Shown in pieces: positions 16,745 to 54,709 of a stretch of 64,000 nt of DNA. The translations under genes were made by a program, and so were the position numbers. The notes below the pieces were generated by a model. It did not search any database, was not told the origin of the DNA, and was given only the letters and a program-made list of their open reading frames with translations. Every line of letters begins with the position of its first letter. Position 1 is the stretch's first letter. Source of the DNA: Candidatus Parcubacteria bacterium (GTDB taxonomy: Bacteria > Patescibacteriota > Minisyncoccia > Phycocordibacterales > CAIZLB01); assembly GCA_043760135.1 (NCBI GenBank), contig JAYUPL010000014.1:25347-89346 (forward strand). Direction: 5' to 3'.

Positions 16745-17332
16745 ATGACAATAATCGCAATACTTATATTAATACTCTCAATTGTAGCTCACGAAGTTGC
16801 TCATGGATTGGCCGCATTGTGGCAAGGTGATAGAACGGCACGAGATGCGGGAAGGCTAACATTAAACCCGATACCACATATAGATATGGTTGGATCAATA
16901 ATATTGCCAGTATTTATGTACATAATAGGAATGCCATTTCTTTTTGGATATGCAAAACCAGTTCCGATCAATCCATATAACTTTAGAAATATAAAATACG
17001 GAGAAGCATTAGTTGCTTTTGCTGGACCATTGGTAAACATTATATTTGTGGCAATATTTACAGTATTACTTCACACAGTTCCAATGAGTCCTGTGTACAC
17101 TGGTGTAGCTCAAATGATTATTTTAATAAACATTGTTCTAGCTTTGTTTAACTTGATGCCAGTTCCACCACTAGATGGTTCAAAAATATTGTTTGCATTT
17201 ATTCCACAAAGATTTTACAGGTTCCGTAAATCACTAGAGGGTAAAAGTTTCTTGTTTTGGTTTATTATCATCATCTTGATTTGGCAAGTATTTCAGCCTT
17301 TGGTTGCTTGGATTTTTGAGAAGTTGGTGTAG
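16745..17332 (+). CDS. small site-2-protease (M50)-like membrane metalloprotease
   Basis: HEVAHG inside TM1 and NLMPVPPLDGSKIL (LDG motif). Confidence 0.6.
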   Translation: MTIIAILILILSIVAHEVAHGLAALWQGDRTARDAGRLTLNPIPHIDMVGSIILPVFMYIIGMPFLFGYAKPVPINPYNFRNIKYGEALVAFAGPLVNIIFVAIFTVLLHTVPMSPVYTGVAQMIILINIVLALFNLMPVPPLDGSKILFAFIPQRFYRFRKSLEGKSFLFWFIIIILIWQVFQPLVAWIFEKLV

Positions 17333-17369
17333 GTAAAGTCAATATTGCAGAATTCGTACAAATGCTATA

Positions 17370-18555: not shown

Positions 18556-18640
18556 TTTGAGGTCACAATTTGTGACCTCAAATTTGGTACAAGAAAATTC
18601 CCCAAGGACCGAGATGGTCCGAGGGGAATGTTTTTTGTTT
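18556..18640. terminator. two hairpins (aaatttgaggtcacaa/ttgtgacctcaaattt and ccccaaggacc/ggtccgagggg + T6) between convergent genes
   Basis: Perfect 16-bp palindrome plus a GC stem followed by TTTTTTG. Confidence 0.6.
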
Positions 18641-19547
18641 ATTCTACAGGCCACTCGCCATCGAAGTTTGGAAGCACTACTTTATCGATATAATCTTTAA
18701 AGAGGCTACTTTCAGGATTAATGCCTAAGAGTAGTTCATTGTAGAGATGACTAAAGAATCCTTTGTGTCCGAAAAATTCTCTAGCCGCTGTCCTGGTGTA
18801 CTTATAGTGACTCAACGCACCTACCCAGGAATTTAAAGTACTGAGTATGTGGAAACACTTAAAGTCTTCGGCATTTTCCCAATGACAATCTTCCGTGACG
18901 ATGCTCAGATGGGTATAGTCTAATCTCCCAGGCCGAATGATTCTTTGTCCAAAATGTGTCCATCGGCACAAGTTTTCATTAGTGATGTGGGCGGCGAATA
19001 ATGGACTCCATGCCTCGTGGTCTTCATCAGACAGAAAATCTGTAAGTCTTCCTGCATAATCATTGGGTGATGCAAGACCACACTTAATAAAAATCCAGAT
19101 TAACATCTTACGTAGGAATTCTTGTTCATCTCTGTATAAATCCAGACTAAAGCCGTACATTTCAGATGAATAACCGGAGGCATTTGGTACTTGAGACCAG
19201 ATAAGATCTATATCATTCCCTAACTTTTTGTATGAAGGTACATCTGATTTGCCGTATTTTTTATAAATAATGTTTTGTTTCCGACGCAATTCTTCAACGC
19301 GTTTGGTTCGGTTTGGAACCAAAACAGTAATATAGTGAATCAGCGATTCCAAAAGGGTAACATACAGATCATAATCACTGTTTTCTTTACGTTTTGCGTC
19401 GATATCACTGTTTCTGTTTTTATTCAGTACAATCCAAGGATAAAGTTGGCTAAAATCTCTCCAATCATTGCTCAGTTTTTGGATGAGCGCGTTGAGCAAG
19501 GGAAGGAATGCGGGGAATGCCACGAAGTTTTCTGGAAACATTTTCAT
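18639..19547 (-). CDS. hypothetical protein (302 aa), GC-elevated
   Basis: Long ORF with GC near 42% and no recognisable motif. Confidence 0.4.
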   Translation of the reverse strand: MKMFPENFVAFPAFLPLLNALIQKLSNDWRDFSQLYPWIVLNKNRNSDIDAKRKENSDYDLYVTLLESLIHYITVLVPNRTKRVEELRRKQNIIYKKYGKSDVPSYKKLGNDIDLIWSQVPNASGYSSEMYGFSLDLYRDEQEFLRKMLIWIFIKCGLASPNDYAGRLTDFLSDEDHEAWSPLFAAHITNENLCRWTHFGQRIIRPGRLDYTHLSIVTEDCHWENAEDFKCFHILSTLNSWVGALSHYKYTRTAAREFFGHKGFFSHLYNELLLGINPESSLFKDYIDKVVLPNFDGEWPVE

Positions 19548-19669
19548 TTTTGTATTTGGTTTAAGTTTCTTTGGTTTCTACTTTAGTAACCTTGCAATCA
19601 GTATACATCCATGTCATAATAATATATACCATTCGCCGAAACGCGAATAATATTGTAATATATAGATAT

Positions 19670-20465
19670 ATGACAAATTCTCACCTAAATATAGACCAAA
19701 TCTGTGAAGTTTTAGACATCAAAACGACCACAAAGCGCATACTTTTGCTGTTGAATAGAGAAGAATAATCTCTCAGTTTCCGATATTTCCTCAGAGCTAA
19801 AAATCCCAAAATCCTCAATATATGACTCATTAAACGAGCTTATCGAAAAAAGTATCGTAATTGAATACATGGAAGGACGCTCAAAAACCTTCGGTATCTC
19901 AGACCTATCCCAACTTGAGTCTGTATATAAGAAGAAAATAGATAGTTTAGAATCGGCACATAAATCATTCATTTCATATATTCAAGAAAATTTACATAAA
20001 GAAGATAAAAAAGTTGGATTATCCCGTCCAAGAATAAAGTTTTATTATGGCGTAGAAGGTATGAGACAAGCTTTCAGAGATACTCCTTGGGTAGCAGAAC
20101 ATAAAGACACCTATCTGATGTGGCCAATGGTTGAAATGGTAAATTTGTTAGGTGAAGATTTTTTGATCCACCATGGAACCTCAAGATTTAATCATGATGT
20201 TTTAATGCAAGTTGTGCAGAAGCATAGTGATAAGGAAAAAGTTCCGGAATCATTCAAATGGAAAAATCATGACATTGAGCAAAAATTAACACAGATTCGA
20301 TTTGCTCCTAAAAATATGGATTGGTCTATTAGTTATTGGATATATGGAGATCAGGTTTTATTTGCAGGGTCAGGATATGAAAAATATGCGTTTGTGGTAT
20401 ATAGTCGAGAATTTGCCCAGTTGATGAAGTTGATGTGGCAGCAAGTGTGGAGTGTTTCGGAATAA
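19670..20465 (+). pseudogene. TrmB-family wHTH transcriptional regulator interrupted by a frameshift near 19755-19768
   Basis: The N-terminal helix ICEVLDIKTTTKRILLLLNRE (ORF 19571..19768) and the continuation NLSVSDISSELKIPKSSIYDSLNELIEKSIV (upstream extension of ORF 19869..20465) lie in different frames. Joined, they form a canonical TrmB wHTH. Confidence 0.45.
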
Positions 20466-20477
20466 GTTTTGAAAAAA

Positions 20478-20969
20478 CTAAATCCACTTTCTCACTTTAT
20501 TTTTGTATTCAGTAAAAATATTTCCAAACTTAGATTGTAAAAACTTTTCTTCTTTTCGTATTAAAAAATAATCTAAACATATTCCTATAAAAATAGTATC
20601 TATAAAAATCCATAGACTGTTAAACAGTAAGGCGATTCCTACATTGATTAATATAACAGCAAGATAAATAGGGTTTCTTGAATATTTATAAATTCCTGTA
20701 TCGATAATATCTGTAACAATATTATTTGGTCCAGCTTTTATTTTATATTTTTTAAATTCTATTTTTGATGAAAATATAATTGACCAGCTAAGTGATAAAA
20801 TTAATATACCGAGAATAAAGTTAAATCTGAAATGTAAATCTGTAGAATAAAAATATTCTAATATTGAAGCAACAACCAAGTTTGAATATAAAATGAAATC
20901 AGATGTTTGGAAGAAATTTTTATGCATGATTGTATTATATAATATTTTAGATTTTCTATTTGACACCAC
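20478..20969 (-). CDS. isoprenylcysteine carboxyl methyltransferase (ICMT)/PEMT-family membrane methyltransferase
   Basis: RNPIYLAVILINVG motif and a polytopic membrane protein. Confidence 0.6.
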   Translation of the reverse strand: MVSNRKSKILYNTIMHKNFFQTSDFILYSNLVVASILEYFYSTDLHFRFNFILGILILSLSWSIIFSSKIEFKKYKIKAGPNNIVTDIIDTGIYKYSRNPIYLAVILINVGIALLFNSLWIFIDTIFIGICLDYFLIRKEEKFLQSKFGNIFTEYKNKVRKWI

Positions 20970-21037
20970 CTAAAAAAAGTATATTGTATAAAAAGATTTG
21001 GACAGGTAAAGTGCCTTTTCCCCAAGTCAAAATTTGC

Positions 21038-21589
21038 AATATGAAAACATGTGGATGGATAATTGCTACGGTTGTGGAAGTTACATCAAGAGAAATAAAG
21101 TTTCGTGTGGACGAATCAGAAATTTTCAAAAATTTACCTAAATTTGCTGACTTACTCGGACAAACTCTTGCGATTTCGAAGAAGGATAAGTTTTGGAAGT
21201 CTGAGATTTGTAAGGGGCGCAGGCACCCTATTACCTTCAACAGGACCGAGAAAGAAATCATTTTTTCTGAAAAGTCTGAACATGTATTACTTATTTCTTG
21301 TAATGATACAGCCCCAGTAAGGCTAATAGGCACTGGTTCCAAAGAGGGGTTGTATAGATTACTTGGAAGAAGTTATGTCCCAGCTGAAATGATATACCGG
21401 GTAAATATTCCTTTACTGGAAGGTTTTGTGAAGGGTACACTGAGTGAAATTGTTCATAAATTAAGGTGTTTTCATTCCGGTGACCCTGAGGTATATCTCA
21501 CTCATGAAAAAACAACCTGGTTTATTTTAGCTCCAGACGGAGGTCTTAAAGACACTACGATGCCTCTACTGACACAAAAGGTGAGGTAA
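21038..21589 (+). CDS. hypothetical protein
   Basis: Longer of two overlapping ORFs. Start set at an internal ATG to clear the divergent methyltransferase gene. Confidence 0.3.
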   Translation, partial: NMKTCGWIIATVVEVTSREIKFRVDESEIFKNLPKFADLLGQTLAISKKDKFWKSEICKGRRHPITFNRTEKEIIFSEKSEHVLLISCNDTAPVRLIGTGSKEGLYRLLGRSYVPAEMIYRVNIPLLEGFVKGTLSEIVHKLRCFHSGDPEVYLTHEKTTWFILAPDGGLKDTTMPLLTQKVR

Positions 21590-21699
21590 GATCCTTCAAT
21601 TTCAATGATTTCTGCAATACTTTCGAGTAGTGCAGGGATTTTTTAATAAAAAGGGTATGTTTCTTGCAAAAAACCCCAAAATATAGTACATTACTGCTC

Positions 21700-22119
21700 A
21701 TGCCTACATTAAATCAATTAGTAAAAAGAAATCGTTCAAAGGCAGTTAAAAAGAGTAAAGCTATTGCACTTACTCGTGGTTTTAACAGTATTTTAAACAA
21801 ACCTATCTTTTATACATCTCCTCAAAAAAGAGGTGTGTGTATTAAAGTTACAACAAAGACTCCGAAAAAACCTAACTCGGCTGTTCGTAAGATTGCTCGT
21901 GTGAGACTTACAAATGGTATCGAGGTTACAGCATATATCGGAGGTGAAGGACATAACTTACAAGAGCACTCAGTGGTACTACTACGTGGTGGTCGTGTAA
22001 AGGATGTTGGTATTAGATATACAGTGGTTCGCGGTAAGCTAGACTGTGCCGGCGTTGCAAAAAGACGTAAGGGCCGTTCTATGTATGGTAACAAGAGACC
22101 AAAAGCCACTACAAAATAA
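21700..22119 (+). CDS. rpsL: 30S ribosomal protein S12
   Basis: [11 protein letters not shown]...[10 protein letters not shown]...LRGGRVKD. Confidence 0.9.
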
Positions 22120-22259
22120 TTGGCAGCAAAATAATCTTTGAACGAGATCATTTCAAATCAAAAAAAATCCAGTTGGAGTACTCGTGCCGCGAGGAATAAA
22201 AACTTACAACAGCTGGTAAATTTATAAACATAAATTATTAAACAAATTAAAATAAAAAT

Positions 22260-22730
22260 ATGAGAAGAAAAGTAAAAAACCGAAACGTCGCTGGAGTTGA
22301 TCCACGCTTCGATTCACTAACATTAGGAAAATTTATTAACTATGTTATGTGGGACGGTAAAAAATCTACAGCAAGAACTGTCGTATATGACATGCTTGAA
22401 GTATTAAAAGAAAAAACTGGAAACGAAAATCCTATTGAGATTTTTGATACAGCGATTAAGAACGTATCTCCTCAAGTTGAAGTTCGATCAAGAAGAGTTG
22501 GTGGTGCAAACTATCAGGTTCCTTATGAGATCAGACAAGACAGAAGAACTTTCTTAGCTATGAACTGGATCATTGGTGCAGCTCGTAATAAAAAAGGAAA
22601 GCCTATGCACTTAAAATTGTCAGACGAGATATTGGCTGCAATGAAAGGTGAAGGTGAAGCTATGAAGAAAAGAGAGAATACACACAAGATGGCTGAGGCT
22701 AACAAAGCCTTCGCACACATGGCTTGGTAA
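22260..22730 (+). CDS. rpsG: 30S ribosomal protein S7
   Basis: MRRK...DPRFDS...FINYVMWDGKKSTA... conserved S7 signature. Confidence 0.9.
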   Translation: MRRKVKNRNVAGVDPRFDSLTLGKFINYVMWDGKKSTARTVVYDMLEVLKEKTGNENPIEIFDTAIKNVSPQVEVRSRRVGGANYQVPYEIRQDRRTFLAMNWIIGAARNKKGKPMHLKLSDEILAAMKGEGEAMKKRENTHKMAEANKAFAHMAW

Positions 22731-22732
22731 TC

Positions 22733-22800
22733 TCGTATTTTTATAGAGTGATGAAAGACTCCAGAGATGGAGTTTTTCTTTGTACCCCTTTATGGGGTGT
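22733..22800 (+). terminator. two successive hairpin terminators after rpsG (actcca-gaga-tggagt+TTTTC; acccc-tttta-tggggt+gtgtttt)
   Basis: Both stems are directly followed by T-runs. Confidence 0.55.
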
Positions 22801-22914
22801 GTTTTATAACTTTATAAAAAATACTGTAAAAATTTAAATTTTCTTGATCAGTATTTTATGTTGTTTTTGCTAACGTAAAACATTACAAAAACAGATATAC
22901 AAAAAATAAAAAGA

Positions 22915-23277
22915 TTGATTCTTGAGTACTATCTCCTCGAGTCTGGTGTTCTTATTGATAATCATGAAGAATTGTTGATTGTAATAGAGAGCCTCAAAGT
23001 TTACATTTCAAGACGAGCTTTAAAACATTTTGTTGAAAGAAGGAAAAGTAAGAATTTAAATATTGTAATGCTACACAAAGCAATTGATTTTATTAAACCG
23101 ACAATATTGTCATATGATGTTATTGAATATTTTGAACCTAATAAATATATCTATATAAAGCATTTTTACCGAATCAATATGCCCTCACTTAGGGTTGTGG
23201 CAGAGGTTATTGATAATCATCTGCAAATAAAATCAATTCATTACAGGATATATAAAAAGACCCAACCCGAAGGTTGA
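22915..23277 (+). CDS. hypothetical protein
   Basis: 120-aa ORF, first gene of the island that follows rpsG. Confidence 0.35.
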   Translation: MILEYYLLESGVLIDNHEELLIVIESLKVYISRRALKHFVERRKSKNLNIVMLHKAIDFIKPTILSYDVIEYFEPNKYIYIKHFYRINMPSLRVVAEVIDNHLQIKSIHYRIYKKTQPEG

Positions 23278-23436
23278 ATCTTTTTATCATAGTTGGGGTG
23301 TCGGCACTGCACCCATGAGTACTCTAGTTTTTACTAGTGCCCGCAGCGGCCATTTCTGTCGTCAAGCTATATGTTTAGAATTATATTCTTTTCAAATATT
23401 TTGTCAAATAATACTTATATATGCTATAAATGACAC

Positions 23437-24390
23437 ATGAAGATTTCGCAGGATAAACCCCTAGACCCCTCATACACCGTAATACTATTTTACAAATATA
23501 CTCCGATAAAAGAATTGGATCGTTGTTTGAATTGGCAAAGAGGGATATGTAGAAAATATAATCTCACAGGAAGAATCCGTTTGGCTTCAGAGGGAATAAA
23601 TGCAACATTAGAAGGTAAAAATGAAGACATTGAAAAATATATTAATGAAATAAAAACAGATTTAAAATATCATGACTTGCATGATGTGGAAATAAAAACA
23701 TCGGTTGGTAGTGGCTTTGCGTTTAATAATTTATCAGTAAAAATCGTAACTGAGATAGTAAAGCTTGGACTTGGAACAGAAGACATTGATCCAAATCAAT
23801 TAACTGGAGTTCATTTAAAACCTTCAGGGTTAAGAGAGTGGTATGAAAACAATGATGACTTTGTTGTTATTGATATGAGAAATGATTATGAGTTTAGAGT
23901 TGGACATTTTAAAAATTCTATCAATCCACCAATTACAAACTTTAGAGAGATTGCAGATGTGTTACCTGACATTGTAAAAGAAAATCCTGGCATAGAAAAC
24001 AAAAAAGTATTAACCGTATGTACGGGAGGGGTGCGTTGTGAAAAAGCATCAGGATATCTAATGAAGCAAGGGTTTAAAGATGTGTATCAACTGGATGGAG
24101 GAATGCATAAATATATGGAGGAGTTTCCAGGGAAAGATTTTCGTGGAGGATTGTTTACGTTTGATAATAGAGTAGTGATGGATTTTACAAAAGATAGAGA
24201 AGTTATTGGAGTGTGTGATATGTGTAATGAAAAGACAGAAAGATTTGATAATTGTATCAATGATGAATGTCATGTGCATATGATGGTGTGTCATGAATGT
24301 AGAGAGAAGAATAAGTTTATCTGGTGTTCAGATACATGTAGGGAGACCGGCAGAGTTGGGAAGGTGAGGTTTCGGGATATGGTGTTGTAA
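23437..24390 (+). CDS. trhO: rhodanese-domain tRNA U34 hydroxylase-like protein (TrhO/YceA family)
   Basis: ILFYKY N-terminus, rhodanese active-site loop CTGGVRCEKA, and a C-terminal Cys cluster. Confidence 0.7.
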   Translation: MKISQDKPLDPSYTVILFYKYTPIKELDRCLNWQRGICRKYNLTGRIRLASEGINATLEGKNEDIEKYINEIKTDLKYHDLHDVEIKTSVGSGFAFNNLSVKIVTEIVKLGLGTEDIDPNQLTGVHLKPSGLREWYENNDDFVVIDMRNDYEFRVGHFKNSINPPITNFREIADVLPDIVKENPGIENKKVLTVCTGGVRCEKASGYLMKQGFKDVYQLDGGMHKYMEEFPGKDFRGGLFTFDNRVVMDFTKDREVIGVCDMCNEKTERFDNCINDECHVHMMVCHECREKNKFIWCSDTCRETGRVGKVRFRDMVL

Positions 24391-24502
24391 GCTTTATATA
24401 TTCACGATATGTACCCTTTAAATCGTGAAAATATACGATTAAAGAGTACTTATTCACGGTTTAACTTGACTTTATAGTGAATAAAAGTATCATATTAGAT
24501 AT

Positions 24503-25384
24503 ATGATAATGTCTAATATATACAAAAAAATAGAAAATCTTCGTCAAAGGTACCAAAAAGCGTTACCAGGTAAGGAATCTTTGATAAAGATGATTGAAGA
24601 ATCAGAAGTTGCTGAACAGGTGTATAACTCAAATGCTATTGAAAACAGTACTCTTTCACTTGAAGAGACTGAAAAAATCATACTACAAATAGACCTAGAT
24701 AGATTCATATCCGAAAGAGAACTCTTCGAAGCTAAAAATCTAGCTCGAGTCGTTTCTTATATAAGCACGAAAGCAAAGGAAAAAGAGCTAGATCTTGATA
24801 TGATTTTACTTTTGCATAAAATGTTGATTTCAAATATTCAGGATGATATTGCGGGTAGGTTTAGAAAAAATGGTGAATGGGTTCGTGTTGGCAATCATAT
24901 CGCCCCAGACCCGCTTGAGGTCGTTTTAAGGCTTACTGACATGCTGGTTGAATATAACTCATACCCAAGTCATCCTATAACAAAAAGAGTTGCTTTAATG
25001 CATTTAATGTTCGAACACACTCACCCATTTTGTGATGGCAATGGTCGGATTGGCAGGATATTGAATAATTATGTACTTATACGAGAAGGTTTTGTTCCGA
25101 TCAATATAAAGTTCATAGACAGACAGTTGTATTATCAAGCATTTAAAGATTTTGATTTAAAAAATAGTATAGAAATAATGGAGGAAATTGTAGGCAAGGC
25201 GTTGTTAAATAGTTATCATAAAAGACTGGCATATCTTGAAGGGTTGAAAATTGTAACATTGGCAGAATATGCAAAGATGAAAAAGATGTCGCATCCAAAT
25301 CTTATAAATAAAGCCAATAGGCAGACGATAGAGGCGTTTTTGGATCAGGGGATTTGGAAGATTGGGGTGAGGGAGGGGGTGTAA
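24503..25384 (+). CDS. fic: Fic-family AMPylase, class II (N-terminal inhibitory helix)
   Basis: Fic motif HPFCDGNGRIGR. N-terminal SNAIEN matches the [ST]xxxE[GN] auto-inhibitory motif. Confidence 0.85.
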   Translation: MIMSNIYKKIENLRQRYQKALPGKESLIKMIEESEVAEQVYNSNAIENSTLSLEETEKIILQIDLDRFISERELFEAKNLARVVSYISTKAKEKELDLDMILLLHKMLISNIQDDIAGRFRKNGEWVRVGNHIAPDPLEVVLRLTDMLVEYNSYPSHPITKRVALMHLMFEHTHPFCDGNGRIGRILNNYVLIREGFVPINIKFIDRQLYYQAFKDFDLKNSIEIMEEIVGKALLNSYHKRLAYLEGLKIVTLAEYAKMKKMSHPNLINKANRQTIEAFLDQGIWKIGVREGV

Positions 25385-25387
25385 ACT

Positions 25388-26155
25388 TTACTTAATCGCA
25401 GTACTCCACACAAACAAAAAAATTTGCTTAAACATATTAGAAATAGTTGGAGATGAAATAGTCACTGCATAAATATTTCCATCTTTTAATGAAAATAATG
25501 CCACATGGTCTTCCATTGCAATCATTGTTGAATTAAATGGAAATTGATTTGGTAAAAATCTCACCTCTCTATATTCATCATTGGTATATGCTGGAAGATT
25601 GAGGTCTTTAACGAATTCTGGAGCAATCAGATGGGTAAATATTTTAAGTTTATTTTTACGATTAAGTACATTAGGTAGATATTTAGGAAAATTCTCTAAA
25701 AGTTCAGGGTGAGATACTGTATAAAGGTTTCTTTCTGTTTTTGTTTCTAAAATATCATAAAACCCATTAATAATATCTTTTATTGCATCCTTCCCTTCAT
25801 AAAATCTTACTTCTGGATGCAGGGTATTTTTTTGGAGTAGGGATTCAAGTTCGGGGAATATCTCTTTTATTATACTTGTTTTTGATTCAGCTTCTTTAAC
25901 TAATCGTCTAGGGTTTTCTGCATACCAGTAGGCAACCTGGTTTTTCTTAAATATGTTTACTAAATCACGCTTTTTTAATCTTTCCAGATCACAGTATACA
26001 GTGGTCCGGGGAAGGGTAAGATGTTTTGCAACCTGAAAAACAGTCTGATCTTTATTACTTAATAGGTAAAGATAGATTGAAGCCTCTCTGTCATTAAGGC
26101 CATATTCTATTAGATTTTGGGTTAAATTGTTTAGTGTCATAAAAGTGGACAACAT
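25388..26155 (-). CDS. TrmB-family transcriptional regulator
   Basis: N-terminal wHTH (EASIYLYLLSNKDQTVFQVAKHLTLPRTTVYCDLERLKKRDLV) plus a C-terminal TrmB-like domain. Confidence 0.7.
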   Translation of the reverse strand: MLSTFMTLNNLTQNLIEYGLNDREASIYLYLLSNKDQTVFQVAKHLTLPRTTVYCDLERLKKRDLVNIFKKNQVAYWYAENPRRLVKEAESKTSIIKEIFPELESLLQKNTLHPEVRFYEGKDAIKDIINGFYDILETKTERNLYTVSHPELLENFPKYLPNVLNRKNKLKIFTHLIAPEFVKDLNLPAYTNDEYREVRFLPNQFPFNSTMIAMEDHVALFSLKDGNIYAVTISSPTISNMFKQIFLFVWSTAIK

Positions 26156-26249
26156 TAGTATATATTATATTGCTTTACATGTAAAGGTTTTATGTATTTT
26201 ACTATAAGAACAGTCATATTTCATGACATTAATTGACATTTAATATATT

Positions 26250-26990
26250 ATGTTACTTGGAACTAGTTGTTCCAAAAGAACCCTAAAAATCAACAATATG
26301 ATCGGATTATCAAATAGTGTACGACTTGAGCAACGTGTATATTATCGTCAGTCTTTGTCCTTGGATTTGAGACTGGGTTGTGATCTCACAATAGAACAAC
26401 GAGTAGATCAAATCGATACAGGAAACTGGTACTATGCAAGTTTCATTGATTTTATTGATCGTGCTATAGGTCATCAGATTTTACCGTCTGCAACCTGTCT
26501 CAATTGTTATCATGAGCTTTCAATCGCTGAAATCGTTGTGGGCTTTAAAAGAGATAGGGATGATTTCACGACACAATGTCCAACATGTAAGAAAAGGTTT
26601 GAAGCAACAAACCTGCTTGATCGTCGGACAGGAAAGGAAACCCAGTTCTGGTGTGATGAACAAACACTTGCACGATTGTATAGCAAAGAGCATCTCGAAG
26701 TTGAGGAGTTTGAGGCTAAGCATCCAGAAATCTATTACTCTGCACTTTTTCACTTCGGTAGTTTATTGAATGCTTTTAGCAAAATTAAAATCAAGTATCA
26801 TAAAGAGAAGCTAAATTGGCCTGATAAGGCTAAACTTTTTCTGGGACAGATTCCTGATATTGATGTTGCGAAAGTGTTCGGTGTTAAAATCTCTGAGATT
26901 AGAAAAGCTCGCATCGAATTTGGTATCGATGCATTCCCAAGAAGTAAATCTATTATGCCTGCAAACTGGAAACCCTATAGAAACAACTAA
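26250..26990 (+). CDS. hypothetical zinc-ribbon protein with C-terminal HTH-like segment
   Basis: CLNCYHE...CPTCKK cysteines. C-terminal DVAKVFGVKISEIRKARIEFGI. GC elevated. Confidence 0.4.
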   Translation: MLLGTSCSKRTLKINNMIGLSNSVRLEQRVYYRQSLSLDLRLGCDLTIEQRVDQIDTGNWYYASFIDFIDRAIGHQILPSATCLNCYHELSIAEIVVGFKRDRDDFTTQCPTCKKRFEATNLLDRRTGKETQFWCDEQTLARLYSKEHLEVEEFEAKHPEIYYSALFHFGSLLNAFSKIKIKYHKEKLNWPDKAKLFLGQIPDIDVAKVFGVKISEIRKARIEFGIDAFPRSKSIMPANWKPYRNN

Positions 26991-26991
26991 C

Positions 26992-27246
26992 ATGCAACAC
27001 AACGGAGAAAATACAAAACTGGAAAAAGGAGATATATGTCGTTGGTTCAAAGGACATGGAACTATTACGTTTATCCGAGACTTAAAACATATGCGGATAC
27101 ACGAAGGTCAGGATGATAAATTCTGTGTCCAATCAATATCCTTCCTTCATTTTGCAGAAATGGTAAAAATGGTATCGGAAGCAACAGGTATGAAAGCGAG
27201 TATTCATGCAGACAACGAGCAGTTTGCGGATTACATATTCAGCTGA
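26992..27246 (+). CDS. hypothetical small protein
   Basis: 84-aa ORF taken from the internal ATG directly after the previous stop. Confidence 0.3.
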   Translation: MQHNGENTKLEKGDICRWFKGHGTITFIRDLKHMRIHEGQDDKFCVQSISFLHFAEMVKMVSEATGMKASIHADNEQFADYIFS

Positions 27247-27334
27247 CAGATTTGTTTATAATCATCAAACGCACGGACTCTTAATGGAGTACCGGCGTTT
27301 TTTTCTTGATTTGGATAATTTAAAAAGGACTAAA

Positions 27335-27387
27335 CCTATACTTAAGTACAGGAAAAAGGGTGGTTTTTCTATACTTGAGTATAGGAA
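27335..27387 (+). promoter_or_regulatory. two direct 20-bp repeats ctaTACTTAAGTAcaggaaa / ctaTACTTGAGTAtaggaaa, each with an internal palindrome, overlapping the promoter region of the Bro-N gene
   Basis: TACTTAAGTA is a perfect 10-bp palindrome. Repeats are spaced 33 bp apart (3 helical turns). A TATAAT lies at 27409..27414. Confidence 0.4.
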
Positions 27388-27425
27388 ATTTAGAATTTGA
27401 CACCAATGATATAATTAAATAATCA

Positions 27426-28250
27426 ATGAATAAAAAAGCTGATAACAAAAAAATAACTATCTTTGAGGATAAAGAAATACGTCGCGTGTGGCATGATGAG
27501 CGATGGTTTTTTGTTGTCGAAGATGTTATCAAAGCCCTTATTGACTCAAACGATGCTAAGCAGTATATACAGAAAATGAGAACACGTGATCTTGAATTAA
27601 ATCAAGGGTGGGTACAAATTGTACTGACCCTTGACGTGTCAACAAAAGGTGGTCTTCAGAAAATGATATGCTCTGACATGGAAGGTGTTTTTCGTATAAT
27701 CCAATCAGTATCATCCCCTAAAGCTGAACCATTCAAGCTCTGGCTAGCTCGAATAGGTAAAGAAAGACTGGAAGAAATAGCAAACCCTGAACTCGCTGTG
27801 GCTCGGGCTAAAGAACTATATGAGAAAAAAGGCTATGACAAGTCGTGGATAGATAAACGCATGCGAGGCATTGCAGTTCGTAACACTTTGACTGATGAAT
27901 GGAAAAACCGTGGAGCAAAAGGTTCTGATTATGCAATTCTGTCTGATGAGATATATAAAGCAACATTTGATAAAACTGCAAAAGAATACATGGATCATAA
28001 AAGCCTTGATAAAAAAGCGGGGGATAATCTTCGTGATCATATGGGTGATATCGAGCTTATCTTGACTATGCTTGGTGAAGCAACGACAACAGAGCTTTCG
28101 ACAACTAAAGATTCTCAGGGTATTGTTGCGCTTAAACAAGATGCTGAAACTGGTGGAGAAGTTGCTGGGCGGACACGGAAAGATATTGAGGAGAAGACGG
28201 GTAAGTTGTTGGTGTCGAAGAGGAATTTTAAGGATAGGAAACGGATTTAA
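27426..28250 (+). CDS. Bro-N domain protein (DinD-like, DNA-damage-inducible/phage-antirepressor family)
   Basis: ITIFEDKEIRRVWHDERWFFVVEDVIKAL and SSPKAEPFKLWLAR match the Bro-N domain. Confidence 0.75.
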   Translation: MNKKADNKKITIFEDKEIRRVWHDERWFFVVEDVIKALIDSNDAKQYIQKMRTRDLELNQGWVQIVLTLDVSTKGGLQKMICSDMEGVFRIIQSVSSPKAEPFKLWLARIGKERLEEIANPELAVARAKELYEKKGYDKSWIDKRMRGIAVRNTLTDEWKNRGAKGSDYAILSDEIYKATFDKTAKEYMDHKSLDKKAGDNLRDHMGDIELILTMLGEATTTELSTTKDSQGIVALKQDAETGGEVAGRTRKDIEEKTGKLLVSKRNFKDRKRI

Positions 28251-28530
28251 CTATTACATTTTTCGAACCATCGATGTATAATACATATGTGCTTGTTAAG
28301 CGAAAGCTTTATATCGGCTACTAAGCTGAAGGTAGGCATTGATAAAGATCTCGTTCTCGTAACGGGTTTTTATGTTATACGTTAGTCATTATAACTTTAT
28401 ATTTAGGGTTTGAATCAAGTAAACTTTATAAAGTTTGGTAAATATTAAGTCTGAGTATAAAGTTTGCTTACATCAAAGGGTTTTAAGGGTGCTTTGTAAA
28501 TATATAAAACTAGGCTACAATATTACCTAT

Positions 28531-29028
28531 ATGGAAGGATTACAAACATTAGAGGAAAATAAAATAAGTTCATTAGAAACACTTGCCACAGAGTATTCTG
28601 TCTTAGCTAAGTATTTAGAGTCAAGTGAAAAATTTTATAGTCACAATGGAATACCTTTACCTGAAGCATTGTATGACGAAGAAAATAAAGAGCTTGTTAT
28701 AGAAATGACTGTTCCTGAAACAGCTCAGGCTTGGGAAGGGTTTGCTCATGGTGGATATTTGGCCACTTTATTAGATACTGGTGCTGGTGTAGCAGGTTTT
28801 ATGGAAGCTATAAAAATGGGAAAAGGTATTGTAACAAAAGAAATAAATAATATAACTTACAAAGCGCCAATACCTGTTGGTTCGCTTATTAAAGTTCGAG
28901 GGAAAATTGTTTCAATAGAAGAAAATGTTGTCAATACTGAAGGATATATATCGTTAGTTATTGAAGGTAAAGAGCGAAGACCTTTTGTATATTGTACAGC
29001 AAAAATGGTTATTAAGGATATTGGTTAA
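28531..29028 (+). CDS. hotdog-fold acyl-CoA thioesterase (PaaI-like)
   Basis: AHGGYLATLLDTGAGVAGF motif. Start taken at the internal ATG. Confidence 0.6.
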   Translation: MEGLQTLEENKISSLETLATEYSVLAKYLESSEKFYSHNGIPLPEALYDEENKELVIEMTVPETAQAWEGFAHGGYLATLLDTGAGVAGFMEAIKMGKGIVTKEINNITYKAPIPVGSLIKVRGKIVSIEENVVNTEGYISLVIEGKERRPFVYCTAKMVIKDIG

Positions 29029-29098
29029 TATATAAAATGAACCCCACTCAGCTAATGCCTTGTGGGGTTATGTTTTGAACCAGAGTTTGTGACCCGGT

Positions 29099-29560
29099 TC
29101 ATTTCCTGATGACCGCTACGTTCCAGTAGTCGGGATACCAACCTTCATGCAGGTGTCTTTTTTGATAGTTGATTGCTGATCCGCGACGGCTGTATTCAAT
29201 TGAAACGACCCATTTATCAGTACTGAAATAATTCTCAAACATGCTACCGAAGAAGAAGAGAGCGTGACCATCCATGCATACAGGGGGAAGATGTTTGAGA
29301 CTTTCGTCAGCGGGATTTTTTGAAATATAATCAGACATGCAATGATTTAAGGGGATGTATTCTACCTGTTGTTGTAACAAGTTAAACATATCCCCAATAG
29401 TCATGTCCTTTGTTCCAATTTTGATTACTTCGATATGGCGAGGGTCAACCATTCCACAATTTTGAAAGTTTGTAATCGGTTCTTTGTATTTAAACCATTT
29501 ATGTTTCTGAATTTCTTCATATTCAGCTGAGGAACTGCAGTCTACTAATGTGTCAGTCAT
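29099..29560 (-). CDS. hypothetical protein
   Basis: 153-aa ORF, GC elevated. Confidence 0.4.
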   Translation of the reverse strand: MTDTLVDCSSSAEYEEIQKHKWFKYKEPITNFQNCGMVDPRHIEVIKIGTKDMTIGDMFNLLQQQVEYIPLNHCMSDYISKNPADESLKHLPPVCMDGHALFFFGSMFENYFSTDKWVVSIEYSRRGSAINYQKRHLHEGWYPDYWNVAVIRK

Positions 29561-29838
29561 ATTTTTGTTGAGTTAAATTTTCATCCACTACCCACACAGG
29601 TATAGGTAATTATTATTTAATTATAGCATATTTACCTATAAAAAGCAAGTTCATAATCGTTCATACCTCCCCGAGGTCGGGGTTCTTTTTCATCCCTAAA
29701 AGACACTCAAAACCCCCTAGAAATCCCCATCAATCCATGCTATAGTTCATGGACAAGTTTTGATTTTTTCGCACAAACTCGCGAGCATCAACACATTTAA
29801 CAAAAAATAAAACAAATATAAAAACAACACACAATTTT

Positions 29839-31983
29839 ATGCAACGTGATTATCCATTAGAAAAAACAAGAAACTTCGGTATTATCGCCCACATCGACGC
29901 CGGTAAAACAACAACATCAGAGCGTATCCTGTACTACACAGGTATGTCCCACAAGATCGGAGAGGTTCACGAAGGTGAAGCAGTAACTGACTGGATGGAG
30001 CAAGAGAAAGAAAGAGGTATTACGATCACTGCCGCTGCGATCACTTGTTTCTGGAATCCTTCTTACATGGGTACTGATAAGTCACAAATGCATAGATTTA
30101 ATATCATCGACACACCGGGTCACGTAGACTTTACGGTGGAGGTGGAGAGATCTCTAAAAGTTCTTGATGGTGCCGTTACTGTGTTTGACGGTGTTGCTGG
30201 AGTAGAGCCGCAATCAGAAACTGTATGGAGACAAGCTGATAAATATAACGTGCCTCGTATTTGTTTTATTAACAAACTAGATAGAACTGGTGGATCATTT
30301 GAAAAATCATTCAAATCAATCACAGAAAGACTTACTAAACATGCTGTTCGTATGCAAATCCCAATGGGAGAGGAAGAAAGAATGGTTGGTGTGATCGATC
30401 TTATGAAGATGAAATCATATACATTCGAAGGAGATATGGGAAGTAAGGTGATAGAAGCTGAAATCCCTGCTGAATACATGGCTGATGCTACAAAATTCAG
30501 AGCTGAGCTTGTTGAAGCTGCTGCATCACAAGATGATGATATGATGAACACATATCTTGAAGGTGGTGAATTTACTATTGAGCAATTAAAAGCTGCTATT
30601 AGAAAAGGAACATTGGCTAACAAACTTTTCCCAGTATTTACAGGAACAGCTTTGAAAAATAAAGGAGTACAGCTTGTACTTGATGCTGTTGTAGAATACC
30701 TACCATCTCCACTTGATATTCCACCAGTAAAAGGACTTGATCCTGAAACTGGAGAAGAGATTGTAAGAGAGGCTTCTGATACAGAACCTTTTGCTGCTCT
30801 TGCCTTCAAACTACAAACTGATCCATTCGTAGGACAACTTACATTCTTTAGAGTGTACTCAGGAACTATTGAAGCTGGTTCATATATCTATAACTCAACA
30901 ACTGGAAATAAAGAAAGACTAGGACGTATTGTTAGACTACAAGCAAATAAAAGAGAAGAGGTTACAAAAGTATATGCTGGAGAAATTGCTGCAGCTGTAG
31001 GTTTGAAAGAAGCTCTTACTTCACATACTTTCTGTGATGAAGCACATCCAATCGTACTTGACCCGATTACTTTTGCTGAGCCTGTTGTATCTCTATCAAT
31101 TGAACCAAAAACAAAAGCTGACCAAGAAAAAATGGGTCTCGCACTTAGAAAACTTGGTAATGAAGATCCAACTTTCCGTATTACTTCAAATGCAGAAACA
31201 GGTCAAACACTTATCGCTGGTATGGGTGAACTTCACTTAGAGATTATGATCGACCGTATGAAGAGAGAATTCAACGTTGAAGCAAATGTAGGTGCACCTC
31301 AAGTGGCATACAGAGAAACTATTACTGCCGAAGTAAAAGATGTTGATTATAAATACGCTAAGCAATCAGGAGGTAAGGGTCAATACGGACACGTACGTAT
31401 TACACTTAAACCACTTGAAGAATTACCAGAAGGAACTAAACTTGCTAAAAATGTTCACCGAGAGCCTGGATATGAGTTTATTGACTCTATCAAAGGAGGT
31501 ATTATTCCTGGAGAATTTATTCCTGCAGTACAAAAAGGTGTTCGTGAGGCTATGGAGCGTGGTATTGTTGCAGGGTTCCCACTTACTGGAGTGTCTTGTG
31601 AACTTACTTTCGGATCATCTCATGACGTGGACTCATCAGAAATCGCCTACAAGATTGCTGCATCACAGGCCTTCCAAGAAGGTGCAAGAAGAGCAAAACC
31701 AGTTATCATGGAACCTATCATGCGTATCGAGGTTGTTGTTCCTGAGAAATTCATGGGTGACGTTACAGGATCATTATCATCAAAAAGAGGACAGATCGAG
31801 GGTATGGAAGATCGAGGTTTAAACAAGGCTATCAAAGCTCTTGTGCCACTTTCAGAGCTATTTGGATACACTACACAACTACGTTCTATGACAGAAGGTC
31901 GTGGATCAAGTACTATGGAATTTGCTAAATATGAAGCGGTACCACCAAACGTAGAAAAACTAATAGTTGACGCGAGAAAATAA
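29839..31983 (+). CDS. fusA: elongation factor G
   Basis: GIIAHIDAGKTTT, DTPGHVDF and NKLDR GTPase motifs. 714 aa. Confidence 0.95.
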   Translation: MQRDYPLEKTRNFGIIAHIDAGKTTTSERILYYTGMSHKIGEVHEGEAVTDWMEQEKERGITITAAAITCFWNPSYMGTDKSQMHRFNIIDTPGHVDFTVEVERSLKVLDGAVTVFDGVAGVEPQSETVWRQADKYNVPRICFINKLDRTGGSFEKSFKSITERLTKHAVRMQIPMGEEERMVGVIDLMKMKSYTFEGDMGSKVIEAEIPAEYMADATKFRAELVEAAASQDDDMMNTYLEGGEFTIEQLKAAIRKGTLANKLFPVFTGTALKNKGVQLVLDAVVEYLPSPLDIPPVKGLDPETGEEIVREASDTEPFAALAFKLQTDPFVGQLTFFRVYSGTIEAGSYIYNSTTGNKERLGRIVRLQANKREEVTKVYAGEIAAAVGLKEALTSHTFCDEAHPIVLDPITFAEPVVSLSIEPKTKADQEKMGLALRKLGNEDPTFRITSNAETGQTLIAGMGELHLEIMIDRMKREFNVEANVGAPQVAYRETITAEVKDVDYKYAKQSGGKGQYGHVRITLKPLEELPEGTKLAKNVHREPGYEFIDSIKGGIIPGEFIPAVQKGVREAMERGIVAGFPLTGVSCELTFGSSHDVDSSEIAYKIAASQAFQEGARRAKPVIMEPIMRIEVVVPEKFMGDVTGSLSSKRGQIEGMEDRGLNKAIKALVPLSELFGYTTQLRSMTEGRGSSTMEFAKYEAVPPNVEKLIVDARK

Positions 31984-32005
31984 TTAATATACTATACAAA
32001 ACAAT

Positions 32006-32275
32006 ATGCCAATAACACAATCAGCCAAAAAAGCTCTTAGAGCAGGAGAAAAAAAGAAAGTTTTTAACTTGAGACGTAAGAAAAAAGTTGAAGATGCAGT
32101 TAAATCTGTTAAACGCCTTGTAAAAGAGGGTAAAACTAAAGAAGCTAATGCTTTATTGCCAGAAGCATACTCTGCGTTAGACAAAGCAGCTAAAGGTAAT
32201 ACTATCAAAGCCAATACAGCAGCGAGAAAGAAATCAAGACTTAATGCTATGGTGAAGAAGGCTACGCTGAAGTAA
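32006..32275 (+). CDS. rpsT: 30S ribosomal protein S20
   Basis: PITQSAKKALRA...Lys/Ala-rich basic 89-aa protein. Confidence 0.85.
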   Translation: MPITQSAKKALRAGEKKKVFNLRRKKKVEDAVKSVKRLVKEGKTKEANALLPEAYSALDKAAKGNTIKANTAARKKSRLNAMVKKATLK

Positions 32276-32297
32276 TATTCTAAACCTAAACAATAAA

Positions 32298-32331
32298 AAT
32301 ACACATCCTGGTTGGGGATGTGTATTTTTTT
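32298..32331. terminator. bidirectional rho-independent terminator acacatcc-tggtt-ggatgtgt flanked by A/T runs
   Basis: 8-bp stem with T7 on the plus strand and a T-run on the minus strand. Lies between the convergent rpsT and 32342 gene. Confidence 0.65.
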
Positions 32332-32341
32332 GAGAAGGTTT

Positions 32342-32938
32342 TTACTTCCCAACAAAGTTTCCCGCTGCTGTCATAATAGTATCCTTGATCTCAAGTGGTT
32401 TAGGGACATCATCAAATAAGAACCTTTGTGTAGCTCCAGCTGTCTGTATTTCCACATCTCCAAAGTTTAAGTATGACTGAACAAAACCATCAGTATGTAC
32501 CGAAGTATCTTCAATAGATGTTAAATGTAACTCAGAAACTTTTCTTCTAAAAAGTGCGAGTTGAGATATGTCCAATATTCTCTCGTCTGTAACTATCCAA
32601 CTATCAAGTGCGTACATTGTTAGTTTATAAAAAACATAAAACCATATTGTCATAAGATATATAACCCAGGTTAAAGTAAAGATTGAAGAAAGATTGTATT
32701 GTATAAGTATTTTCGCACCTAAAACTACAAGTAGAAGTGGTAGTATGCTTGCAAAAAGTCCAATTACAATGGTACTTAGAAGCACAAACCAATGACGTCT
32801 TGTAAAAACTAGTATTTTTTCATTTGGTTTTTTACCATCAAAATTCATCTCTGAGTGAGATAGAAAATCAAATAAATTTCTACTTTGTGTTTTTATTTCA
32901 ACATTAGCTATGTCGATAGTTTCTTTTATTATATTCAT
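32342..32938 (-). CDS. membrane protein with bacterial PH (bPH_2/YdbS-like) domain
   Basis: Two TM helices followed by a PH-like domain. Similar architecture to 50597..51205. Confidence 0.45.
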   Translation of the reverse strand: MNIIKETIDIANVEIKTQSRNLFDFLSHSEMNFDGKKPNEKILVFTRRHWFVLLSTIVIGLFASILPLLLVVLGAKILIQYNLSSIFTLTWVIYLMTIWFYVFYKLTMYALDSWIVTDERILDISQLALFRRKVSELHLTSIEDTSVHTDGFVQSYLNFGDVEIQTAGATQRFLFDDVPKPLEIKDTIMTAAGNFVGK

Positions 32939-32942
32939 AGTT

Positions 32943-33140
32943 TTATCTTATTGCTATAAGGAGCATTATACTTAATATGGTTAAAAAAACTGATCCAAAT
33001 ATCATTATAAAAGCAATCCGCCGAGGATATGTTCCAATTCCAAAACGTATTAAGTGATAGGAGAGAAGGAATATTCCGGTCCAGTAACCGAATAGAAATA
33101 ATCCGGTTATTATTGCAATAGAGTTGGATAGGGTGGGCAT
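32943..33140 (-). CDS. hypothetical small 2-TM membrane protein
   Basis: 65 aa, two hydrophobic helices, immediately upstream of the bPH protein. Confidence 0.35.
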   Translation of the reverse strand: MPTLSNSIAIITGLFLFGYWTGIFLLSYHLIRFGIGTYPRRIAFIMIFGSVFLTILSIMLLIAIR

Positions 33141-33246
33141 GTTTGGATTATATCATATTTGGAATAAAAATAGCCCTAAGCGTGTTTATTGACAACTCTA
33201 TATTTATTGATACTATTACCCTGTAAACCTTAAACCCCAAACTACC

Positions 33247-33843
33247 ATGGCCACAAAAGATATTGTCTGGATGTCTATTATCCTCCTTGTTATCATTATT
33301 ACTTCGGTTATTTCCTGGAAGGAAAAGAATAATGCTCGAAATTTTGTTTTGAACTCTAAAACCGCCCTGGAGGATTTACTTAACCAGGCAGAAGACTTAC
33401 TTGATAAAAATCCTGAAGTTGCACCTCCATTTTTCGATGATTTTCATGAGATGTGGTGCGATCTTATAAATTTATTCCAAGGTGTCGATGAGAACACCTT
33501 TGATATTTGTTGGGTCACGAAGCAGAAAGAGGTGTTGATATTTAAACACTCGATAACTGCCAAGGTCGTCGAAATCAAAGAAGACATTCAGATAGTAATC
33601 GACGCAAAGTTCCATGTGCCTTTGTTGTTAGAGCTACTGCCTCCATTGCTTTCAGAAGTTCGTAAAAAGATTTCTGAAGGAAAACTTTCCGAGGACAAAG
33701 CGAAGCCTTATCTTGATCGAGCACACGGTTGGTTTTCTGAAGCGTGTGCAGTGATGCGTCAAAGTCAGGATCATTCATTGATATGGGGTATGCTCAGAAG
33801 CGCAAACGAAGAACTTGGTTTGGCTGATTCTTTCGAGGTGTAA
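33247..33843 (+). CDS. hypothetical protein with N-terminal TM
   Basis: 198-aa ORF. Confidence 0.4.
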   Translation: MATKDIVWMSIILLVIIITSVISWKEKNNARNFVLNSKTALEDLLNQAEDLLDKNPEVAPPFFDDFHEMWCDLINLFQGVDENTFDICWVTKQKEVLIFKHSITAKVVEIKEDIQIVIDAKFHVPLLLELLPPLLSEVRKKISEGKLSEDKAKPYLDRAHGWFSEACAVMRQSQDHSLIWGMLRSANEELGLADSFEV

Positions 33844-54673: not shown

Positions 54674-54709
54674 GTTATTATCAATCACACAAACAAAACT
54701 AATATATAT

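Follow-up and report, generated by a model that had tools for sequence, protein, structure and literature searches.

Nine accessory genes between rpsG and fusA in a Candidatus Parcubacteria bacterium and the variable content of this junction in Paceibacteria

Genes and signals between rpsG and fusA

The stretch of 64 kb analysed here (the window), from contig JAYUPL010000014.1 of a Candidatus Parcubacteria bacterium, carries genes of the str operon in the order rpsL-rpsG, two terminator hairpins, nine genes (22731-29838, the island) and fusA-rpsT. The contiguity of the operon (rpsL-rpsG-fusA-tuf) is broken: rpsL and rpsG are contiguous, rpsG and fusA lie 7108 nt apart, and tuf is found nowhere in the window. 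The left conserved flank consists of rpsL (ribosomal protein S12, 21700-22119; TIGR00981 equivalog, 185 bits) and rpsG (ribosomal protein S7, 22260-22730; TIGR01029 equivalog, 191 bits), the latter being the anchor of the variable locus. The right conserved flank is formed by fusA (elongation factor G, EF-G, 29839-31983; TIGR00484 equivalog, 1058 bits) and directly after it rpsT (S20, 32006-32275; TIGR00029, 68.9 bits). All four genes are on the plus strand. The open reading frames (ORFs) of the window are intact under code 11 and its GC content is about 34.5%. In Paceibacteria the position of such a segment is fixed and its content is fluid; breakpoints between variants lie at hairpins and promoters. 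The island of the window has the composition of the host and no mobility genes.

Variants in other strains, designated here by L numbers, mark out at least three slots in the island: A (22806-23410), B (about 24413-25390) and C (27304-29694). Slot A holds hyp120 (22915-23277, plus strand, 120 aa), which has a terminator hairpin of its own (23252-23287). The protein is a candidate PBECR3-like protein with RNase fold; its distant homologues match the PBECR3 nuclease family at 2e-6, under the Pfam cut-off. A Cpf1_PI-like Pfam match of hyp120 (E = 0.0028, also under the cut-off) was dismissed as noise. Likewise rejected was the GC-rich stretch 23295-23360 as a structured element; it has no second copy in the window, and its fold does not surpass that of shuffled sequences (z = -0.87).

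The next gene, trhO (23437-24390, plus strand), encodes a predicted oxygen-dependent tRNA uridine(34) hydroxylase (UPF0176 rhodanese). We assign the protein to TrhO from the equivalog-level match to NF001133 (231.7 bits, cut-off 170), the domain order UPF0176_N, Rhodanese, Rhodanese_C and the rhodanese active-site loop CTGGVRC. Slot B is occupied by a gene for a Fic protein of 293 aa (24503-25384, plus strand; Pfam Fic 2.8e-17). Its active-site motif HxFx(D/E)GN(G/K)RxxR is present as HPFCDGNGRIGR at residue 174. The inhibitory motif (S/T)xxxE(G/N) is found N-terminal to the core on the same chain (SNAIEN at residue 43), and the protein therefore belongs to class II. It matches the PADLOC families PDC-S04 (4e-30) and SoFic (8.4e-28, residues 7-213) and also PHROGs. 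Against the NCBIfam SoFic equivalog NF046030 it scores 40.6 bits with a cut-off of 550, and it does not appear to be a SoFic defence protein by orthology.

A gene for a TrmB-family transcriptional regulator follows on the minus strand (25388-26155; Pfam TrmB 6.7e-13), divergent from a two-gene module on the plus strand (26250-27246). The first gene of this module, hyp246 (26250-26990, probable true start 26298, about 230 aa), encodes a zinc-ribbon protein with the motifs CLNC and CPTC, and an ORF of 84 aa (26992-27246) abuts it. Just 7 homologues of the zinc-ribbon protein were found among 5.8 billion proteins, and those named by source all come from Paceibacterota. The CxxC...CxxC pairs are invariant among them and the N-terminus is rich in Q and R. 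In L210, L211, L213 and L214 the homologue is likewise followed by a small ORF (84-92 aa); zinc-ribbon protein and 84-92-aa partner form a portable pair. The contexts of the homologues (L210-L214, L216) are unrelated to one another: after uvrB, beside an rve integrase and recA, or near rplJ-rplL. An AlphaFold2 model from the 7-sequence alignment was unusable (pLDDT, the predicted local distance difference test, 46.8) and no structural claim is drawn from it.

Slot C begins with a gene for a Bro-N domain protein (27426-28250, plus strand; Pfam Bro-N 2.4e-11). Over its full length it matches PADLOC PDC-S13 (5e-100) and phrog_15286 (1.7e-73), and homologues with 33-50% identity occur in 37 IMG/VR contigs. 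The slot further contains a gene for a hotdog-fold 4HBT thioesterase (28531-29028, plus strand; Pfam 4HBT 1.5e-8), whose match to the TIGR00369 domain (8.8e-7, 29.0 bits) is under the cut-off of 36.6 bits, and hyp153 (29099-29560, minus strand, 153 aa). The latter is a near-orphan without Pfam, PADLOC, PHROG or NCBIfam match; a HMMER search of 1.84 billion cluster representatives gave a single relative (63%), apart from one weak similarity to a repeat of a 3365-aa protein. For hyp246 and hyp153 searches of PDB sequences returned nothing usable and IMG/VR no match. Look-ups for exact copies of Bro-N and hyp153 returned them in the context of the window alone, with no sign of either exact gene at another place.

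An initial annotation of the window had named the families TrhO, class II Fic, TrmB, zinc ribbon, Bro-N and thioesterase, and Pfam, NCBIfam and motif evidence agrees with all of them. It had also described fusA as followed by rpsT instead of tuf, rpsG as followed by two terminator hairpins, and Bro-N and Fic as typical of phage and mobile elements, all of which holds. The phage flavour is real at the level of families, for these two cassettes and not for the island as a whole. In error was the statement that none of the nine genes is related to translation, since TrhO is a tRNA-modification enzyme.

The two hairpins after rpsG are terminator-like, tandem and provided with T-runs on the plus strand (22753-22778 and 22783-22805, the latter being 22783-22799 plus T-run). 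Their fold has z = -3.2, and 0 of 200 shuffles fold as well. Hairpin 1 is kept in all strains, hairpin 2 in some only. A further terminator-like hairpin, CCCCGAGGTCGGGG with a T-run (29669-29692, plus strand), forms the right edge of slot C. Downstream of it we predict from the sequence a fusA promoter, TAGAAA-17-TATAGT with TG (29718-29746, plus strand), which includes the extended -10 box TGCTATAGT at 29738-29746 and is followed by a structured leader up to 29838 (z = -3.75 for the fold of 29640-29845). Promoter and leader are 81-88% identical at the DNA level in L015 (from 29710), L210, L211, L218 and L222. An Rfam scan of 20500-33500 returned no credible RNA family.

Each cassette has its own promoter-like box. 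Before trhO a TATAAAT box stands about 7 nt upstream of the ATG. TATAAT-like boxes 6-8 nt before the ATG are found at trhO (23424-23439) and at several slot-A genes just after rpsG in L002, L004, L011 and L012; a box this close to the ATG suggests leaderless mRNAs. Two 16-nt palindromes, CTATACTTAAGTACAG and CTATACTTGAGTATAG, lie 33 nt apart at 27336-27384, 5′ of the Bro-N promoter (2 near-perfect copies with 0.45 chance matches expected), and a perfect palindrome, AAACTTTATAAAGTTT, is located at 28421-28436 upstream of the thioesterase gene. The segments 27336-27384 and 28421-28466 are 84-93% conserved in L210 and L218, which lack Bro-N, and are adjacent there. These palindromes are probably operators of some regulator.

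Variation among strains and across Paceibacteria

The S7 protein of the window is 100% identical to that of GCA_014378965.1, and in other contigs a 100% identical S7 adjoins different downstream genes. Contigs with an S7 97-100% identical to that of the window show several different layouts after rpsG. Three islands are resolved on single contigs, namely those of the window (7.1 kb), L218 (6.5 kb) and L222 (7.4 kb). At 90% or more amino acid identity these three have only trhO in common; each of them also contains hyp120 or a diverged homologue of it (70-80%). The trhO gene is the most constant resident of the locus, with 91-96% amino acid identity in L002, L005, L011, L012, L210, L218 and L222, and carries an internal deletion in L004.

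In slot A, hyp120 of the window is replaced by a 105-aa membrane protein in L004 and L005, by LGT, a 154-aa protein, a radical SAM protein and the pair RelB/YafQ in L002, by RelB/YafQ and a 104-aa protein in L011, and by a 94-aa ORF in L012. L218 has a hyp120 homologue and four extra ORFs (172, 267, 127 and 140 aa), and L222 a 103-aa hyp120 homologue with a 40-aa ORF. Slot B, after trhO, contains instead of the class II Fic an unrelated Fic of 355 aa (a better SoFic match) and a 136-aa gene in L004 and L210, an AAA_14/DUF4143 ATPase in L218 and an NrtR-Nudix-NAMPT cassette for NAD salvage in L222. This last cassette (GCA_040384245.1, 8573-11710), consisting of an NrtR-like regulator, a Nudix hydrolase and NAMPT/NAPRTase, stands in place of the whole Fic-TrmB-zinc-ribbon block of the window, between trhO and a 93%-identical Bro-N gene. 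The block of TrmB, zinc-ribbon protein and 84-aa ORF is common only to L210/L211 (about 85% DNA identity), and trmB also to L016; the regulator is 95% identical in L210 and 77% identical in L016, where it too lies between rpsG and fusA.

Slot C is replaced by about 730 nt in L210/L211, and homology is back at 29695, after the plus-strand hairpin. Bro-N has an ortholog of 93% amino acid identity in L222, is absent from L210/L211 and has left remnants of about 70 nt in L004 and L218. The thioesterase is absent from L210/L211, L218 and L222. Together with its promoter Bro-N forms a clean indel of about 1 kb between the two short conserved segments that bear the palindromes. Overall the breakpoints cluster at 22777-22808 (the rpsG hairpins), at 23408-23421 (the trhO promoter), at 27303/27394 and at 29653-29695 (hairpin). 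Depending on the variant, homology on the left of slot A ends at 22777, 22785, 22804 or 22808 and homology on the right of slot C resumes at 29653, 29686 or 29695.

Across the class we compared about 20 kb around rpsG in each of 80 GTDB species-representative loci titled Paceibacteria/Parcubacteria (S7 identity 62-100%). The rpsL-rpsG pair is never split, with a gap of at most 210 nt in 79 of 79 loci. In 68 species representatives fusA follows rpsG on the same strand at a distance of at most 10 kb, and only one or two of the evaluable relatives deviate from this; in L017 the gap exceeds 10 kb. The distance between rpsG and fusA is below 200 nt in 27 of these 68 species, 200-500 nt in 9, 0.5-1 kb in 7, 1-3 kb in 16 and more than 3 kb (up to 8.7 kb) in 9. 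Thus, the gap is at least 200 nt in 41 species and more than 1 kb in 25. As a control served 74 loci with EF-G from a metagenome scan, mostly of distant bacteria (56-80% identity). Of these, 59 have rpsG and fusA next to each other, and no gap exceeds 1.5 kb. The insertion, which the initial annotation had called unusual, is therefore unusual against bacteria in general but not within Paceibacteria.

The gap ORFs of the different species fall into more than 100 unrelated clusters. Their Pfam families are mixed and comprise NTP_transferase (sugar nucleotidyltransferases), TrmB, an ABC transporter operon, aconitase, a GH3 glycosyl hydrolase, ORF6N and others. About 6-8 of 110 gap ORFs across the class match PADLOC at 1e-8, as a raw count. 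In the window 2 of the 9 proteins match PADLOC candidate or SoFic models, and sister strains add the second Fic and RelB/YafQ.

In a neighbour-joining tree of S12, S7 and EF-G open and closed rpsG|fusA junctions are scattered among one another. L013, with a gap of 46 nt, is the sister of the window (7108 nt), and L014, with 140 nt, that of L016 (2107 nt, with the 77%-identical trmB). Since both states are interspersed, the junction has been opened, refilled and closed many times. L013 is the nearest relative with fusA visible (S7 92%) and provides the empty site, an AT-rich spacer of 46 nt without hairpin; homology to the window ends at 22731 and resumes at 29814. Relative to this nearest relative with a closed junction the segment is an insertion, and the coordinates of about 7 kb of accessory genes splitting rpsL-rpsG from fusA, as first annotated, were exact. 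The order fusA-rpsT is common to L013, L014 and L016.

Some of the filling is old. Orthologues of the RelB/YafQ pair and of trmB (73-80% amino acid identity) are found in the same gap of L015 and L016, where EF-G is 87-88% identical, and these genes would hence be either long-term residents or old exchanges. In the subclade of L019, L021, L022, L026, L050 and L052 a minus-strand gene for a sugar nucleotidyltransferase lies just upstream of fusA, often paired with a TrmB-like regulator just after rpsG, a filling which looks locally stable and vertically inherited. In L051 (S7 64%) a Fic gene 69% identical to that of the window (17279-18151, minus strand) is located between fusA and an EF-Tu-like G-domain match, taken as tuf. 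The same type of cassette thus occurs at the other open str junction.

Outside the island further genes attracted our attention. The region upstream of rpsL (18639-21589) is also variable among near-identical strains: in L012 glyA (serine hydroxymethyltransferase, SHMT) directly adjoins rpsL, an isoprenylcysteine-methyltransferase-like gene (20478-20969) has no homologue detected in the close relatives L010-L012, and a 209-aa ORF shows just 53-61% identity in relatives. The same region contains a TrmB-family paralogue (19672-20465) that is frameshifted in the window; about 31 residues at its start are encoded in the frame of ORF 19571-19768, and from 19764 on the sequence continues in another frame. 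The orthologue in L219 and L222 is an intact protein of 264 aa (90% amino acid identity), and the copy in the window is either a pseudogene or a sequencing error. Further downstream nusG (54131-54673) and rplK (54710-55135) are followed by genes for a peptidoglycan-binding protein, BacA, dCMP deaminase, dUTPase and thymidylate kinase (54131-58820 in all). As rplA-rplJ-rplL was not found after nusG-rplK in the window, a second conserved translation cluster is interrupted as well.

Origin of the segment

The initial annotation had offered two explanations, a mobile-element remnant and a lineage-specific regulatory module. According to the first, a single element (prophage, integrative or mobilizable) would have integrated between rpsG and fusA, and the island would be its decayed remainder after loss of the integrase and the att sites. 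The full-length match of Bro-N to a phage family with homologues in viral contigs, the PHROG and PADLOC matches of Fic, the clean empty site in L013 and the hyp246 homologue of L216, which adjoins an rve integrase, would be in line with such an origin. However, no integrase, recombinase or transposase is present among the nine proteins (Pfam, NCBIfam, PHROG) or in the precomputed Pfam annotation of the contig, and the island has no structural or replication genes. The att-like repeats proposed for 22730-22915 and 29560-29838 were searched for, direct and inverted, and yielded nothing but one AT-rich 16-nt inverted chance match. There is no tRNA within 5 kb of the locus, and blastn of the island gave no phage DNA match and only two plasmid matches of about 100 nt. 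The composition is the same as in the host. The GC content is 0.344 in the island and 0.346 in the rest of the window, and the tetranucleotide distance of the island corresponds to the 53rd percentile of same-size windows. The elevated GC content ascribed to several island genes lies within the background (0.30-0.395 against 0.349 +/- 0.047 for the 62 other ORFs; per-gene Mann-Whitney p = 0.66 for GC and p = 0.20 for GC3, the GC content at third codon positions). Furthermore, the genes do not move as one unit. Relatives swap single cassettes while trhO and the flanks stay about 88% identical between them, hyp246 homologues elsewhere stand in their unrelated contexts without the other island genes, and in L015 and L016 the divergence of trmB and of the toxin-antitoxin pair keeps pace with that of the core genes. 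We conclude that the segment does not bear the marks of one discrete mobile element. From the features expected of a prophage, an integrative and conjugative or mobilizable element, a transposon or a remnant of these, it shows only the polymorphism with an empty site, and a decayed element is in our view improbable.

According to the second explanation the island would be a fixed ancestral module acting on translation, TrhO on tRNA, Fic on a translation factor and RNases of the RelE/PBECR type on the ribosome, co-regulated with the ribosomal genes. TrhO as a true tRNA-modification enzyme is indeed the most constant resident, and slot A alternates between the RelB/YafQ pair and the PBECR3-like protein; YafQ is described as a ribosome-dependent mRNA endonuclease. 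The Fic of the distant L051 next to the EF-Tu-like match and the missing compositional break would also fit. But the predicted terminators after rpsG and the separate promoters of the cassettes speak against co-transcription, the whole set is missing from L013 and L014 as the nearest relatives, and the content of the gap across the class is miscellaneous (ABC transporter, aconitase, glycosyl hydrolase, NAD salvage). A recurrent linkage of Fic or TrhO to the str operon was also rejected, as homologues near rpsG or fusA are confined to the closest relatives and 1-2 other loci of 160. The regulatory module thus found no support, and we consider it unlikely, although a little less so than the decayed element. 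It had been argued beforehand that a gene order shared by close relatives without compositional discontinuity would indicate an ancestral arrangement. The discontinuity is indeed missing and relatives share the position and the trhO anchor, but the rest of the gene order is not shared.

The coincidence of variant breakpoints with the hairpins at 22777-22808 and 29653-29695 might suggest a dedicated site-specific exchange of cassettes, integron-like or targeted to hairpins, with the border hairpins as recombination sites, all the more as the cassettes are single transcription units and a clean indel of about 1 kb comprises Bro-N and its promoter. However, the scans made of the 64 kb detected neither an IntI-type integron integrase nor another recombinase, and the hairpins differ in sequence, with no shared attC-like repeat family at the cassette borders. 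Breakpoints at terminators and promoters are to be expected anyway, because only intact transcription units survive selection. We therefore regard such a system as very unlikely. Least credible of all is an assembly or binning artefact that joined unrelated contigs. The relatives are metagenome assemblies and many of their contigs break inside the locus, yet the island DNA was assembled independently in SRR22198261 (L001, 100% identity over 20.5 kb), and two contigs of SRR22198272 reproduce 23839-28300 and 28271-30222 at 100% identity. Since independent assemblies from two runs reproduce the internal junctions, and since L218 and L222 also span rpsG to fusA on single contigs, an artefact can practically be dismissed. 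An exact-protein look-up of the EF-G of the window gave no match in spite of the 100% DNA identity of L001, which we take as a gap in the index.

In our view the rpsG|fusA junction of Paceibacteria (Patescibacteria; candidate phyla radiation, CPR) is probably a long-lived locus of gene flux, of which the 7.1 kb segment would be the local state. We suggest that gene flux at this locus proceeds as follows. The rpsL-rpsG unit would end at its own terminators and fusA would have its own promoter, both as predicted from the sequence, so that rpsG and fusA are presumably transcribed separately. DNA between them could therefore be gained, lost and replaced without polar effects, and the interval would be neutral ground in which fusA keeps its linkage downstream on the same strand and loses its adjacency. 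Turnover would take place cassette by cassette, each cassette being a self-contained transcription unit with breakpoints at terminator hairpins and promoters. The three slots hold interchangeable, mostly toxin- or defence-like cargo, in the window the PBECR3-like protein in A, the class II Fic in B, and the PDC-S13-type Bro-N protein with the thioesterase and the orphan in C. Cassettes might enter by homologous recombination between relatives, anchored in the extremely conserved flanks, and might be removed by deletion. Uptake of DNA is plausible as a ComEC competence gene (Pfam PF03772) is located 9 kb upstream of the locus.

Several points weigh against this proposal of a gene-flux locus. 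The relatives are contigs of metagenome-assembled genomes, many of which end inside the locus; several variants are incomplete and contamination of bins is possible. The tree was built quickly by neighbour joining from three proteins and carries no support values. Terminators and fusA promoter are only predicted, and so are the defence roles of Fic and Bro-N, which come from hidden Markov model matches to PDC-S04 and PDC-S13, candidate families that PADLOC derives from genomic association and that are not validated systems. In the recombination mechanism we are much less confident than in the overall picture. Moreover, the junction stands out as a hotspot in comparison with other bacteria, but it may turn over no faster than the average junction of these genomes. 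Upstream of rpsL the strains vary too, nusG-rplK stands without rplA after it, and the fusA|tuf junction is open still more often, with an EF-Tu-like G-domain match within 300 nt in just 5 of 60 loci. These looser neighbours speak for a general fragmentation of operons rather than for a special site, and the loosening of translation operons is general in the Paceibacteria lineage.

A more far-reaching idea, which we hold to be doubtful, is that the str junctions (rpsG|fusA and fusA|tuf) are preferred exchange sites for hairpin-bounded cassettes, many of them for toxins or defence, swapped between strains and species via recombination anchored in the ultra-conserved translation genes. If this were true, reduced genomes without a classical mobile-element gene at the locus would gain a route to a shared pool of accessory and immune genes. 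We would then also have a simple flank-based handle for mining CPR defence systems, with the zinc-ribbon and 84-aa pair exclusive to Paceibacterota and hyp153 as examples.

The gene-flux locus at rpsG|fusA matters in other respects as well. The adjacency of rpsG and fusA is among the most conserved of bacterial gene pairs, and a class in which the junction is open in most species implies that the linkage is not obligatory once the parts have their own transcription signals. The site is flanked by marker genes and easily found in fragmented metagenome assemblies, and it concentrates strain-variable CPR genes, among them defence candidates (Fic, Bro-N), toxin-antitoxin pairs and unknowns restricted to the lineage. 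Knowledge of gene exchange and phage defence in CPR bacteria is still scarce. These assemblies tend to break just after rpsG, a tendency which the locus also explains and which is of importance for binning and phylogenomics based on ribosomal proteins.

Comparison with known systems

The canonical str operon of E. coli and most bacteria has the order rpsL-rpsG-fusA-tuf (Table 2 of PMC1924603). Compared to it rpsL-rpsG is intact and adjacent in the window, and fusA is still downstream on the same strand. In contrast, rpsG and fusA are 7.1 kb apart with predicted terminators and a separate promoter, no tuf lies within 32 kb and rpsT takes its place after fusA. In E. coli the translational feedback by S7 relies on coupling across the operon; a feedback of this type presumably could not reach fusA in the arrangement of the window.

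Some of the cargo resembles type II toxin-antitoxin and Fic/Doc-type cassettes. The Fic of the window has complete active-site and class II inhibitory motifs and matches SoFic and PDC-S04, although it differs from SoFic proper in falling under the equivalog cut-off. As in defence cassettes, the Bro-N protein matches PDC-S13 from end to end, and sister strains have RelB/YafQ in slot A. No phage-defence phenotype of CPR bacteria is known from these data. For an island between rpsG and fusA, the str operon in CPR bacteria or PDC-S13 we found nothing relevant in the literature, of which our coverage was partial, so that this is weak evidence of novelty.

The closest parallels are variable or defence hotspots flanked by core genes, such as cDHS1 and cDHS2, described for Pseudomonas aeruginosa by Johnson et al. 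(2023, PMC10250203), and the integration hotspots which Hochhauser et al. (2023, PMC10121019) reported for E. coli. Like these, the rpsG|fusA site has a fixed position between core genes, is occupied in most genomes and carries a cargo which differs in close relatives and mixes defence or toxin candidates with many unknowns. Two defining traits of a hotspot are found here: the same core-gene position recurs in the 68 species representatives with rpsG and fusA on the same strand, and the content differs both in the contigs with 97-100% identical S7 and in the ORF clusters across species. In Pseudomonas the core region flanking the hotspots includes a tRNA or tmRNA gene and the hotspots often carry transposases or prophages, whereas the locus in the window has neither tRNA nor mobile gene; still, 29% of the cDHS1 and 47% of the cDHS2 sites also contain no detectable mobile gene (PMC10250203). 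In several further respects the rpsG|fusA site is unlike the known hotspots. It interrupts a translation operon that is otherwise near-universal, its size is small (0.2-10 kb), its cargo across the class is mostly non-defensive, and its hosts are CPR bacteria with reduced genomes.

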